Shown here in pieces: positions 34,860-58,913 of a DNA stretch of 64,000 bases. The stretch lies in the IMG/VR virus record IMGVR_UViG_2936514734_000001, positions 96,001 to 160,000 of that record. One strand, 5' to 3'. This stretch comes from a virus. Its lineage: Duplodnaviria > Caudoviricetes. Within the stretch, counting starts at the first letter, position 1. Each line of letters starts with the position of its first letter. The notes under the pieces are model-generated. The model was not told where the DNA came from, did not search any database, and saw only the letters and a list, made by a program, of their open reading frames with translations. Made by a program: the position numbers and the translations under genes.

Positions 34860-35051
34860 TTACTCCCTCTTTGAAAAAATAAGTTTGTTACAATTAGTGC
34901 ACGAATATCGTATTTCAGTTTTTTCAGGGAGCTCGTTAAACTCTATCACTCTTCCAGCGGAATCTTTTTTATACGAGGCTAATACGCAAACCTCTTTTCT
35001 TAAATAGGCTTGTTCGCATTCACACCTAGTAAAATCCTCATGAAGTCTCAA
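34860..35051 (-). CDS. Small Zn-binding protein
   Basis: CEC..CTNC. Confidence 0.55.
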   Translation of the reverse strand: MRLHEDFTRCECEQAYLRKEVCVLASYKKDSAGRVIEFNELPEKTEIRYSCTNCNKLIFSKRE

Positions 35052-35332
35052 TCATAATTCCTCCCTTGGATGTATTTACTGGTAGAAGTTATTTCCCCAT
35101 GTCTAACAACAAGTTATCTGCTATCCTAGGATAAGTAACTTGTTATATATTTCTATTCTTATATACCTTCAAAGTTAAAATCATTTATATCTGTATAGAC
35201 TTGGAAGATAAAAAGAAATATTAGTAAATAATTTGACAATGTTTTCTAATATAGTATAAATCGGTTTGTAAATTGAGTAAACATACTATTCGTGACTCAT
35301 AAGAAAACGCTTACATTAAAAAAAGAAAGCCT

Positions 35333-35740
35333 TCATCGGAAAGATGGCCGCTTTCTTAAAGTTACTGATCTATTAAGATTTCTATACTCTGATTTATTTA
35401 GATGGTTGTAGCACCTCTTAGTAATGGGTAGGCGCATTATTTTTAGGTCTGCCCACCACGGACCATAAGTAGCATTGTCCCATCCATAACCTATTAGCTT
35501 ATCGAGGTTAATTGCTGCATATCGGGTAACTTTTTCAAACCTGCAGTTACGCCTGTTGAAATAGTTAACCCAAAATGACAGCGAATCTTTAAATCTGTAT
35601 ACTACATTATTTGACACATACACAAGAACATGATGCTGTGTTTCTTCATCAAGCTTGATGCAATATATCTTTTCGTGAAAAGGTTGAAGTTCTGTAATTT
35701 CGTCTGGTAGCTTGCCTTGTACTTCGTAGATATCAGACAT
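35333..35740 (-). CDS. Stand-alone LytTR-type DNA-binding protein (no receiver domain)
   Basis: SLSFW..RFEKVTRYAAINLDKL..LPITKR resembles LytTR F.R.HRS.IVNL..I..LPVSR. Confidence 0.6.
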   Translation of the reverse strand: MSDIYEVQGKLPDEITELQPFHEKIYCIKLDEETQHHVLVYVSNNVVYRFKDSLSFWVNYFNRRNCRFEKVTRYAAINLDKLIGYGWDNATYGPWWADLKIMRLPITKRCYNHLNKSEYRNLNRSVTLRKRPSFR

Positions 35741-35751
35741 ACTTTTTCACC

Positions 35752-35907
35752 TTAATGCCACCACCAAGATAAGCTTGAGGCTTCATATATAGATGAATCA
35801 TCAAAACCTGCCTCAGCTTGCATTGTGTCAGCTTCAGCATAAGCAACAGTGGCGAAGGTAGCTAAAATTAGAGACATTACAAAACCTAATGTAATTTTTC
35901 TAGTCAT
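35752..35907 (-). CDS. Secreted 51-aa peptide precursor (not in track)
   Basis: GGAGGTG RBS; MTRKITLGFVMSLILATFATVAYA|EADTMQAEAGFDDSSIYEASSLSWWWH; Sec signal with AYA site. Confidence 0.8.
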   Translation of the reverse strand: MTRKITLGFVMSLILATFATVAYAEADTMQAEAGFDDSSIYEASSLSWWWH

Positions 35908-36604
35908 GCTTGTTCACCTCCTCGATTGGTTTTAAGAATTGGATTTCATCGTGTTCTTTCTTTAAAGCATATGCTAGTAGAAAAACGAACACAAAAAATG
36001 AACTAATTGATAAGAATGTTAAGCTAGGGGTAATAGAATTAAGGTGTGTAAATATAATAGTAGAAGGAAGACAAAGTGATGCGCAAATTGATATTCCAAT
36101 TACTAAGTTACGCTCCCATTTGAAACGAATTCTTTCAAAATCAAATGTAAAACCCCATCCTTTTAGATAAAGCAAAACTGCTATTAAGCTATAAACCAGA
36201 CCAGAAGTAATATCCAAGGCATAATTGCGCCATATATGTTGTTTCAGTTCCGCCGGCATAAAAAAGCCAAACGAACTAAATATAATCCCGAGTTGAACCA
36301 CAAGCGGAAGAATAAGACCTCCCGAAACTGTCACCATTAATGACCAGATTGTTGGGATTTTAACTACAGCTGTTAGGTAGAGAAAGGTGATTAAGACTGA
36401 TATGATCGGGACCACATAACCAATTTTAGCATCCGTATTAAAATAGACTAAATAATTGATTATGCTATTTAAAAGTGAAACAACCGCAATCTTTTTAAAA
36501 TGACGACGTACCCTTAGTTGAAATAGGGCTGACATGATTACAAAAGTACCAATATTATAGATACTTTGTGATAGTACAAACCATTCTAAATTAGCGGAAT
36601 TCAA
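35900..36604 (-). CDS. Polytopic membrane protein (~7 TM), AgrC-sensor-like without kinase domain
   Basis: Multiple hydrophobic helices; AGGGGAG RBS; stop overlaps peptide start. Confidence 0.7.
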   Translation of the reverse strand: MNSANLEWFVLSQSIYNIGTFVIMSALFQLRVRRHFKKIAVVSLLNSIINYLVYFNTDAKIGYVVPIISVLITFLYLTAVVKIPTIWSLMVTVSGGLILPLVVQLGIIFSSFGFFMPAELKQHIWRNYALDITSGLVYSLIAVLLYLKGWGFTFDFERIRFKWERNLVIGISICASLCLPSTIIFTHLNSITPSLTFLSISSFFVFVFLLAYALKKEHDEIQFLKPIEEVNKHD

Positions 36605-36745
36605 ATATTTCTCCCCTTTTATTCTCTACTTCTACCTAGTAAAAATTTCATGCAGTTAATGTTTTCTTCCTTAATTGGGTGTCTTTTATCACAGGAATTA
36701 TTTTCGCATATATAGCCAATATAATCCACAATTTGATGATGAAAA

Positions 36746-37528
36746 TTAGATGACATTTCTGTTATTTTTCTGACCATTTTTACTAATTTGACTTCTCAAT
36801 TCTTCTACTTCTTCACGAAGTCTTCTTAGTTCCTGGTACATTTCTATTTCCATGTCAAATGACTTTACCAAATAAATAGATTCGTCATTTTTATAGCGGA
36901 ATGGTATTACCCAATACGGTCTGTTTTCTTGAAATGCTTCAAGCTCTTGCTTTTCAAGCCATTCTTTAGGAATACTGATAGTTTTCTCTCCTCGTGCATT
37001 TAACGTTCCCCTCTCTTTACATTCCATCAAATAGTCTTGGGTTTTGATGTCTCCTTTTGCATACCACATTGCTCCACTGTTGGCTTGACGCTTAGCGTCT
37101 TCAATAGGTTTTTTTCTCATTGTTGGTGTGGCACCCATTGTAGATAATGAAACTCGTGAAAGAGGATTTACAGGTATTTCTTTAGGGACTTCTTCCTTAT
37201 CATCAGATGATTCTACCTGTATACGAGGTTTTTGTATTTTAGTCTTTTTGTTCGATTGCTTGAAACCCGTAGAGGAAGTAGGACTTTTTGCTTGATAAGC
37301 TGAATTCCATTTCTTTGCTACGGTCTTTTCAAAGGCCATCCCCTCCTTTCGTTCGTCTTTATGAATTCGAAAAGCCGCATTACGCTCAGCTTGTTTTTTC
37401 TGTTCTCTTATTCTGAGCTTTTCTGCTCTTTCCTCATGACTGTTTTTATACAACCGCACACCATCACATAGGTGACAGAGTGCGGAATTCTCACACTTGT
37501 TATGAGTTTCTTGGCTACACTTATGCAA
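36746..37528 (-). CDS. Hjc-like PD-(D/E)XK resolvase/endonuclease
   Basis: GMAFEK, NSGA..KGDI..LMECK. Confidence 0.7.
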   Translation of the reverse strand: MHKCSQETHNKCENSALCHLCDGVRLYKNSHEERAEKLRIREQKKQAERNAAFRIHKDERKEGMAFEKTVAKKWNSAYQAKSPTSSTGFKQSNKKTKIQKPRIQVESSDDKEEVPKEIPVNPLSRVSLSTMGATPTMRKKPIEDAKRQANSGAMWYAKGDIKTQDYLMECKERGTLNARGEKTISIPKEWLEKQELEAFQENRPYWVIPFRYKNDESIYLVKSFDMEIEMYQELRRLREEVEELRSQISKNGQKNNRNVI

Positions 37529-58067: not shown

Positions 58068-58913
58068 TTATGCTACACGGATTTTTTGACCAACAGTGAT
58101 TTTATTAATGTCTTGAATATCAGGATTCAAAGCTTTAATTTTATCAACTGTTGTATTGTACTTAACTGCAATTGCAGAAACTGTATCACCTGCTACTACC
58201 GTATAGTACACCGCTGTAGACTTCACTTTTAACACTTGACCGATAGTGATAATGTCTGAAGTTAAACCGTTTAATTGTTTAAGTTCATCTACAGTCATTT
58301 GATATTTATTAGCGATAGACCAAAGAGTATCACCTGCTACAACTGTATATGTGTCAGTTGCAAGAGATGGTTCAGTAACACCAGCAACTTTACCTGTTAA
58401 GGTTTTAACAATTGCTTGAGCTACTTTCTGAACACCACCAGGGCCCATTACTTTGTCCATATCAGATTGAGTATCAATGAAGCCAGTTTCGACAAGAATA
58501 GCCGGAGCATTTGTTGAGTTAAGGAAACCAATTCCTTGTCGCTCTTGAGGACCACGATCTTTATAACCCATTGCAGTAGCAAGGTCTTTTGATACTTTAG
58601 CTGCAAGTTCTACTTCGCTGTAATAAAGAACCTCACAACCAGTTCCACCACCAGCATTTAAGTGAATACTTACATCTAAACGTCCTTCTTTTGGAAAGCT
58701 ATTAGCTTTTCTTACAGCGTTAGTCCAAACTTCAGTTTGAGTTGTTCCAATGTCATCTGTTACAACTTCTACGTTTTGACCTACTGCCTTCATCTGCTTT
58801 TCAAGTTCAGCAACAATCAATCTAGCTACTTCATGTTCCTTGTAGCCACATCCGTATGCTCCTGGAACAATCGCATTATGGCCCGCTGTTAAAGTGATTA
58901 AATTATAACTCAA
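58068..58913 (-). CDS. N-acetylmuramoyl-L-alanine amidase (Amidase_3) plus two LysM
   Basis: Paralog of neighbour; two YTVVAGDT LysM repeats. Confidence 0.93.

Follow-up and report, generated by a model that had tools for sequence, protein, structure and literature searches.

A candidate kinase-free, peptide-gated LytTR cassette in a Priestia phage and its kinship with agr-type operons

How might a phage read a peptide outside the cell and pass the message to DNA without phosphorylation? The question is raised by three coupled genes in a stretch of 64,000 nucleotides (the window in what follows) taken from the IMG/VR record IMGVR_UViG_2936514734_000001, a Priestia phage genome of 239,374 bp that CheckV rates as complete and of which the window comprises bases 96001-160000. 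The genes encode a membrane protein that we treat as a candidate sensor, a small peptide and a stand-alone LytTR-fold protein. A previous reading of the sequence alone had proposed that they form a kinase-free, peptide-gated system resembling the LytTR Regulatory Systems (LRS) of streptococci, and this proposal is supported by the conserved order of the triplet, the conservation of the peptide, the fold of the regulator, covariation between peptide and membrane protein and a link to agr. Based on this evidence, we think it rather probable that peptide, sensor, LytTR protein and promoter act together as a portable cassette that senses a peptide without phosphorylation.

The three genes are laid out as follows, and the coordinates and description given for them by the sequence-only reading hold in the open reading frame listing.

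36604..35900, minus strand: membrane-protein open reading frame, 234 amino acids, with a TTG start behind AAGGGGAG
35907..35752, minus strand: peptide open reading frame, 51 amino acids, its ATG overlapping the membrane-gene stop by 8 nucleotides (ATGACTAG)
35740..35333, minus strand: LytTR-fold open reading frame, 135 amino acids, starting 11 nucleotides past the peptide stop

The sequence GGAGGTG stands 9 nucleotides 5' of the peptide ATG. All three genes are conserved and under purifying selection. The ratio of non-synonymous to synonymous substitution (dN/dS) lies at 0.13-0.31 in the membrane gene and at 0.08-0.10 in the 135-residue gene. Nothing significant was found for any of the three proteins in Pfam, NCBIfam or PHROGs. 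Among phage GenBank records, tblastn with the LytTR protein gave no match and blastn gave only a flanking match of 161 nucleotides, to Bacillus phage vB_BauM_KLEB27-3; rhizosphere metagenomes hold near-identical DNA.

The peptide and the outer face of the membrane protein

The 51-residue product is built as a pro-peptide, with a Sec-type signal, a variable linker and the conserved C-terminus SLSWWWH. Its n-region carries two basic (K/R) residues and leads into an uncharged run of 20 residues and an AYA|EA site at residue 24, in agreement with the Sec-signal peptide and the AYA cleavage originally suggested. A small open reading frame of the same design lies 3' of the membrane gene in all 16 related loci, encoding 42-55 amino acids that begin with M-x-K/R-K/R, continue through a hydrophobic run and a variable Thr/Ser/Ala/Glu-rich linker, and end in [S/T]-W-W-W-[E/Q/H]-stop. 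The peptide frame on which the earlier proposal depended is thus kept at every locus. These loci account for 15 distinct peptide sequences, and in all of them [ST]WWW[EQH] stands directly 5' of the stop codon; signal-peptide features are found in 16/16 peptides and a signal-peptidase motif in 13. The recurrence of the small frame, taken with the low dN/dS of the membrane and 135-residue genes, is more than chance would give. The peptide gene itself has dN/dS values of 0.1-1.0, and its linker evolves freely.

A lipoprotein reading of the peptide was ruled out, as there is no lipobox and most members lack Cys. The second TGGTGGTGG in the window (at 58645) is unrelated and lies inside an amidase/LysM gene in another frame. 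A scan of viral contigs for the pattern S-WWW-[EQ]-TAA returned only three contigs, all of them already known, and 45 other matches that were out of frame or not small open reading frames.

The last residue of the peptide changes in step with the membrane protein. In each of the 16 loci, a peptide ending in E is accompanied by K57-x-x-D/E60 in loop 2 of the membrane protein, and one ending in Q or H by [GPST]57-x-x-[KRH]60. Out of about 240 alignment columns, perfect partitioning with the peptide end is seen at residues 57 and 60 alone, both in outer loop 2 (mutual information 0.99 of a possible 0.99), which is the kind of co-variation between peptide C-terminus and receptor that the sequence-only reading had named as a check. 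For two of the sensors (P0027 and P0029, loci L118 and L119) a Q/H-type peptide was predicted from the loop before the DNA was looked up, and both predictions held; the peptide of a third (P0023, L120), whose loop type had not been assigned beforehand, ends in Q and fits the rule. When loop 2 was masked for tree building, the best topology called for three switches between the two types and the bootstrap trees for 2-3. These sequence comparisons make a contact between the peptide and outer loop 2 of the sensor well supported but not proven.

The membrane protein itself is predicted to have seven hydrophobic helices in an N-out/C-in topology. Its predicted inner loops hold 15 Lys and Arg residues as against 3 in the outer loops, a clear positive-inside pattern that agrees with the roughly seven-helix protein described at the outset. 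Its homologues form 20 clusters at 53-97% identity, all from Priestia, Cytobacillus or Gottfriedia assemblies or from metagenomes. When this Priestia group is compared with the more distant Paenibacillus homologues considered below, the most conserved long segment is cytoplasmic loop 5 (KGWGFTFDFERIRFKWERN; GWGFxFDFExxRFK), at 0.63. Outer loop 4 is the most conserved part inside the Priestia group (0.83) but is poorly conserved between groups (0.24). This pattern is as expected if the outside of the protein reads differing ligands and the inside holds the same partner, and together with the loop-2 covariation it is our reason for regarding the protein as the receptor of the peptide. We therefore treat it as a candidate peptide sensor and LytTR holder that lacks a kinase domain.

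The AlphaFold2 model of the membrane protein was poor (predicted local distance difference test, pLDDT, 48), too poor to serve as a search query. Among annotated structures, those closest to the ESM Atlas model of the exact sequence belong to HATPase_c_5 (AgrC-type) kinases, in their membrane parts, with TM-scores of 0.62-0.69. Structural kinship with the AgrC-type membrane domain stays a lead, because sequence profiles do not confirm the likeness. Pfam gave no HATPase or HisKA match for the 234-residue protein, a profile search of the PDB with the sensor gave no match, and a match to 7TMR-DISM_7TM (E 0.0044) fell below the cut-off. A role as an MroQ/CPBP-like protease was ruled out, there being no Pfam match and no conserved His/Glu motif.

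The regulator and its co-inherited promoter

The family of the 135-residue protein is very small, with 11 clusters among 5.8 billion proteins and only 6 matches in a profile search of 1.8 billion representatives. The protein does not match the Pfam LytTR family (PF04397) even at E 10, and a PF04397 search of the whole phage genome gave no match. Its AlphaFold2 model (pLDDT 88.8) was used to compare folds. The top 13 Foldseek matches are all LytTR domains (3d6w, ComE, AgrA), and VIA-align superposes the model on AgrA and ComE with Z 10.0-10.7 and a root-mean-square deviation of 2.4-3.5 over 92-106 residues, the next fold scoring Z 4.2. The LytTR fold, with the ten beta strands of AgrA and ComE, takes up residues 5-114 of 135 and leaves no room for a receiver domain, so both structural comparisons bear out the receiver-less, LytTR-like protein proposed from the sequence.

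Profile comparison places the protein in the same family by descent. In hhalign, its profile (A1) aligned with that of the stand-alone LytTR proteins of Paenibacillus (A3) at a probability of 97.6% and E 4e-12. Members of A3, and the distant matches P0034, P0036 and P0038, pass the Pfam LytTR cut-off, and the A3 profile matches AgrA in the PDB at E 4.4e-5, the only PDB sequence match of the regulator family; AgrA is also the nearest solved structure to the family of the 135-residue protein. The protein has both the fold and the homology of a LytTR domain. In the alignments as we read them, its invariant R73 stands opposite N201 of AgrA, a DNA-contact position. An acidic N-terminal stretch of 35 residues (isoelectric point 4.25) is followed by a basic remainder (10.3).

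One variant concerns the start of the gene. In the loci L003:4898-5284, L025:3892-4278, L118 and L119 the LytTR frame is fully open, with dN/dS 0.08, but has no ATG, GTG or TTG start. In these L003-type phages the start is likely an ATA codon 6 nucleotides past AAGGTGA.

Downstream of the LytTR gene lies a compact set of features.

35318..35357, minus strand: terminator-like hairpin, AAGAAAGC...GCTTTCTT and a T run, overlapping the LytTR gene at its end; read from the sequence
35305..35314, minus strand: box A, GTAAGCGTTT, a candidate LytTR binding site
35283..35295, minus strand: box B, TCACGAATAGTAT, abutting the -35 hexamer and starting about 20 nucleotides past box A; from the alignment
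35253..35281, minus strand: output promoter, TTTACT-N17-TATACT, directed away from the cassette; from a promoter scan
34860..35051, minus strand: first gene past the output promoter, encoding a 63-residue CxC...CxxC protein of no known family; candidate regulated cargo

The boxes and the promoter belong to a near-invariant element of about 60 nucleotides with the consensus ATGTAAGCGTTT(T/G)CTTATGAnTCACGAATAGTAT(A/G)-TTTAC(T/C)-N17-TATACT. It stands just 3' of the LytTR terminator in 12 of the 12 LytTR-bearing loci, whatever their backbone, and box A lies 17-55 nucleotides past the LytTR stop in every one. Since the genes beside it are saturated at synonymous sites when these loci are compared, the identity of the non-coding element points to selection. 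In three loci from which the whole LytTR region has been deleted (L008, L010 and L024) the box and promoter have gone too; in L023 a smaller deletion took the LytTR gene and box A, and left box B and the promoter. Box and promoter are therefore inherited together with the LytTR gene. An equivalent of the hairpin with its T run is kept in the relatives, and a consensus terminator scanner did not list the hairpin of the window.

Box A occurs once in the window, and in its extended form once in the whole phage genome. In L003, L025 and L119 it is doubled at a 21-bp period. The known LytTR sites of LRS consist of 9 bp, a 12-bp spacer and 9 bp (ACCACTTAC-12 bp-ACCACTTAC), which likewise gives a 21-bp period (PMC6193735). 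Box A is accordingly put forward as a candidate site for the 135-residue protein, with indirect support from its co-inheritance and its 21-bp doubling.

What lies behind the promoter varies. In the window the cargo consists of the 63-residue protein and further small genes, none of a known family; in the L003-type phages it consists of a conserved non-coding leader of about 650 nucleotides followed by a phage sigma factor (phrog_351, E 2.5e-16). The cassette looks like a self-contained sensor-to-promoter switch. It is kept in several unrelated mobile backbones, as a search for the synteny of the triplet revealed. In relatives of the 239-kb phage it is found at the same position, flanked by a resolvase-like gene and by small zinc-ribbon genes; in a second phage type it is divergent from an HTH_3 gene and near RusA; and it is carried by a chromosomal island with integrases and YopX, and by short contigs. 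The differing backbones indicate that the cassette is mobile as a unit.

Two further observations concern the DNA behind the promoter. The non-coding stretch at L003:5290-6038, found also in L025, L118 and L119 between the output promoter and the sigma-factor gene, runs for about 650 nucleotides at 80% mean identity with long invariant runs. Rfam gave no match above chance for this leader in L003, which by analogy of position could be a long leader or a non-coding RNA placed like aimX of arbitrium. In the window, a long, near-perfect palindrome (AACAAGTTACTTATCCTAGGATAGCAGATAACTTGTT) at 35100-35145, between the output promoter and the start of the 63-residue gene, could be an operator or a leader hairpin.

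Agr-type relatives, mechanism and competing explanations

A genome scan found homologues of the sensor in Paenibacillus and Cohnella that align over the full length at 31-36% identity, with E down to 1e-25. Their operons run in the order sensor, AgrB, AgrD-like peptide and a LytTR-only protein of 126-136 amino acids, and the AgrB assignments were verified with Pfam (E 2e-19 and 2.6e-16). The AgrD-like peptides end, for example, in ...ASIVYINQPEVPDELLK. Some Paenibacillus loci lack AgrB or both peptide genes, and the family as a whole is present in 18 of 401 sampled genomes of the class Bacilli. The agr connection that had been suspected from the phage sequence is borne out by these operons, in which homologues of the sensor and the LytTR protein flank AgrB and AgrD. 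As judged from sequence relationships, the phage pair is a branch of a kinase-less agr-type family in which a Sec-exported peptide stands in for AgrB and AgrD. The absence of AgrB noted for the 64-kb window holds, and extends to the whole 239-kb phage. We found no published description of the kinase-less cassettes of Paenibacillus, Cohnella and their prophages.

A more distant locus (L058:1495-3621) combines a sensor homologue, AgrB and an AgrD-like peptide with a full response regulator (Response_reg E 4e-12, LytTR E 6.6e-12), and no kinase is visible within its 3.6 kb. Its layout may stand midway between the classical one and the kinase-less one.

The peptides of the two groups can be compared at their active ends. 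The predicted Paenibacillus pheromones have a conserved Ser and four hydrophobic residues (S-I-V-Y-I, S-I-L-F-I, S-W-T-F-V) followed by an xxPExPEEL tail, from which a five-residue lactone ring is predicted. The phage peptide has a single invariant hydroxyl residue, exactly five residues from its free C-terminus. This distance equals the Paenibacillus ring length and so fits the placement in the agr family. AgrB acts by exchanging the peptide bond of the AgrD tail for the ring bond; this mechanism cannot apply to the phage peptide, because the peptide ends at the would-be ring residue. The phage peptide is most likely linear.

A mechanism that joins these observations would run as follows. The 51-residue product would be exported by Sec and cut after AYA to give a peptide of about 27 residues, possibly trimmed further, whose business end would be the C-terminal [S/T]WWW[E/Q/H]. 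The peptide would accumulate outside the cell and dock on the outer face of the sensor at loops 2 and 4. Through cytoplasmic loop 5 and its tail, the sensor would then hold or release the receiver-less LytTR protein, much as the streptococcal LRS inhibitors do with HdrR and BrsR. Free LytTR protein would bind the GTAAGCGTTT box and switch the adjacent promoter with the phage genes downstream, which would be small zinc-ribbon proteins here and a sigma factor in another phage. In the Priestia lineage, a Sec-exported linear peptide would have taken the place of the AgrB/AgrD pair. Within this scheme we infer the export and cleavage of the peptide, its binding to the sensor and the sequestration of LytTR by the sensor, as well as the sign of the regulation and the benefit to the phage.

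Phages so far known to communicate (through arbitrium, Rap-Phr, borrowed agr or VqmA) do so with cytoplasmic receptors or classical kinases, and we know of no natural signal for any LRS. It is possible, and we put this forward tentatively, that the cassette is the first phage system in which a membrane receptor reads an extracellular peptide and the signal reaches DNA without phosphorylation, that its receptor family has switched ligand class from an AgrB-made cyclic peptide to a Sec-exported linear one, and that it serves as a plug-in switch with its own promoter and varied cargo, a sigma factor included. If so, it would represent a new and very compact signalling logic (about 1.35 kb with the promoter) that is free of kinases and uses a plain ribosomal peptide, and LRS would gain a concrete ligand-gated relative to study. 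Its parts are already defined as a short unmodified peptide that can be synthesised, two predicted specificity residues, one candidate DNA box and one promoter, and it would serve as a ready orthogonal peptide switch in hosts of the Bacillus type. It would further reveal the means by which large phages of soil bacilli, whether lytic or in a carrier state, perceive one another. New here are the Sec-peptide variant, the covariation of the peptide with loop 2 and the co-inherited output promoter.

Several results weigh against this scheme. The covariation rests on few independent events, the strongly supported branches of the tree forcing only one switch, and a tree-aware sign test had too few independent pairs to reach significance. 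Pherotypes of agr, arbitrium and Phr diversify, whereas the C-terminus of the peptide hardly varies. Box A is absent 5' of the operon, and there is no sign there of the positive autoregulation that is typical of LRS and agr. A comparison of the sensor with five Paenibacillus AgrC-type kinases by hhalign found no similarity (probability 0.6), and a search for longer, kinase-fused forms of the sensor turned up none, which is weak evidence. The sole trace of expression is one 205-nucleotide contig from a food-fermentation metatranscriptome that lies inside the sensor gene and leaves the peptide and LytTR genes uncovered; this contig need not derive from RNA and weighs neither for nor against expression. 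Finally, deletions of two differing extents have removed the LytTR gene from close phage relatives, which retain sensor and peptide, so that the pair must have some value without this regulator. One of these relatives is a complete 245-kb phage with no LytTR anywhere in its genome. The pair might act with another partner, signal to other phages or play a part in the membrane. Remnants of the deleted gene can still be read 3' of the peptide gene, as ...EYRHLNILRLRKHASL in L023:3854-3908 and as ...LRKLASL in L024:3866-3893.

The LytTR-less phages are also the starting point for the best-placed alternative, in which the sensor and the small protein form a two-part membrane device for superinfection exclusion, immunity or an action on the envelope. 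The small protein would then act as subunit or effector and would not diffuse as a signal, and LytTR protein and promoter would be optional riders. Such a device would account for the purifying selection on the pair (dN/dS 0.18-0.20) in phages that lack the LytTR gene and output promoter, and for the near-invariant peptide end; the 8-nucleotide gene overlap suggests stoichiometric co-production, and the Trp-rich end would sit at the membrane interface. We nevertheless consider it unlikely. The Paenibacillus homologues share their operons with AgrB, AgrD and LytTR and with nothing else, a setting that speaks of signalling, and the cross-group conservation of the sensor peaks in its cytoplasmic part. 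Unlike bacteriocins, the peptide in its mature form has an acidic or neutral character and a variable linker of low complexity, and most of the peptides (13 of 16, as above) carry signal-peptidase motifs.

It has also to be asked whether the peptide mainly jams or hijacks the receptors of competing phages, prophages or bacteria, its linear [S/T]WWW[E/Q/H] end mimicking a five-residue agr-type ring. The only invariant hydroxyl lies at just the distance from the C-terminus that is predicted for the Ser-lactone ring in Paenibacillus, and the LytTR-less phages still make the peptide, both of which would suit a jamming role. We judge this improbable all the same: the covariation with the adjacent receptor suggests that the two are cognate, outside mobile elements no chromosomal host receptor belonging to the sensor family was found, and the viral-contig pattern scan found the peptide only in this lineage.

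There is little chance that the membrane protein instead serves to mature, export or scaffold the peptide and that the LytTR protein senses something else since, for all that the sensor gene always comes first in the peptide-making operons and that homology of its product to known sensor domains could not be detected in sequence, Sec export of a peptide does not call for a dedicated exporter, no catalytic-looking polar residues are conserved in the membrane part of the family, the cytoplasmic loop is the most conserved part of the sensor, and two loci (L012 and L016) pair sensor and LytTR without any peptide gene.

Returning to peptide sensing through the cassette, its purpose in the phage life cycle is harder to place. 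Several isolate assemblies hold contigs of about 235-247 kb from relatives of the phage, which hints at a carrier state. The phage of the window has no tyrosine integrase or ParB; a choice between lysis and lysogeny is for this reason not an obvious output, and a lifestyle role of the cassette is speculative.

Relation to known systems and the upstream region

A near relative in layout is the kinase-less agr cassette of Paenibacillus, which likewise opens with a sensor and closes with a LytTR-only protein, both homologous to those of the phage cassette and encoded in a single operon. The Paenibacillus cassette has AgrB and AgrD, whereas the phage cassette lacks both and has a Sec-signal pro-peptide that finishes at its active end. 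The outer loops of the two sensors differ, and the Priestia-type output box and promoter are not common to Paenibacillus.

With the LRS of Streptococcus mutans (HdrRM and BrsRM; PMC6193735) the cassette has in common a receiver-less LytTR protein co-transcribed with a membrane protein, the want of a kinase and, in some of its members, a direct repeat at a 21-bp period near a promoter. In all reported LRS the regulator gene comes first (PMC6193735), whereas the cassette and all its relatives open with the membrane gene and close with the regulator; in the cassette a peptide gene lies between the two. LRS membrane proteins carry an LRS domain such as DUF2154, which the seven-helix protein lacks, and LRS repeats lie upstream of the operon, whereas the cassette box lies downstream. 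Given the reversed gene order, the lack of upstream repeats and the unrelated membrane protein, the cassette is not a member of LRS as defined.

By the same logic, canonical agr (agrBDCA of Staphylococcus aureus) exports a peptide, senses it with a polytopic membrane protein and gives its output through LytTR. The cassette lacks AgrB, the AgrD tail, the kinase domain and the receiver domain, and so is not a member of agr either; in place of the amphipathic leader of AgrD its peptide has a Sec signal, and it ends in WWWH without a tail. The Clostridioides difficile phage phiCDHM1 is reported to carry agrB, agrD and an agrC kinase (PMC3901668). It likewise has phage-borne, agr-related genes, but the cassette has none of these three.

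Arbitrium (AimP/AimR) and Rap-Phr of Bacillus phages share with the cassette a phage-borne, Sec-exported pro-peptide whose linker varies and whose active C-terminal end is conserved, and arbitrium also has an output element just downstream, in the position of aimX. Their receptor is a cytoplasmic TPR protein reached by Opp import, whereas the receptor of the cassette would be an outward-facing membrane protein. No TPR or RRNPP family match was found for the three cassette proteins and, there being no TPR receptor, the cassette does not belong to RRNPP. It would work most like a peptide-gated LRS, and by descent it is a kinase-less agr offshoot. A search of the full-text literature found no description of this layout.

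Upstream of the cassette lies one further feature.

36605..36745, minus strand: non-coding region with a lineage-specific conserved block and a TGACA-N4-TGTCA-like palindrome, lacking box A

This region probably holds the cassette's own promoter. No LytTR-type direct repeat, box A or common 10-mer was found 5' of the membrane gene in any locus, and Rfam gave no match above chance on the cassette. The block at 36700-36760 on the minus strand, which precedes the sensor gene in the jumbo-phage lineage, reads …TGACA-N4-TGTCA…AACATTCA…AAnTTAATTGGTAT…TATGnGAAAAT. The same non-coding block recurs at L001:3840-3900, L023:2870-2930 and L023:3990-4060, and in relatives it also stands 5' of the 63-residue gene. 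In some loci it forms a short open reading frame whose frame is not conserved. The block may be a lineage-specific promoter or operator, or a leader RNA module. Just 5' of the cassette, at 36746-37528 on the minus strand, lies a gene for a protein of 260 amino acids with a Cys-rich N-terminus, the C-terminal half of which matches a phage Holliday-junction-resolvase family (phrog_2002, E 9.6e-17).

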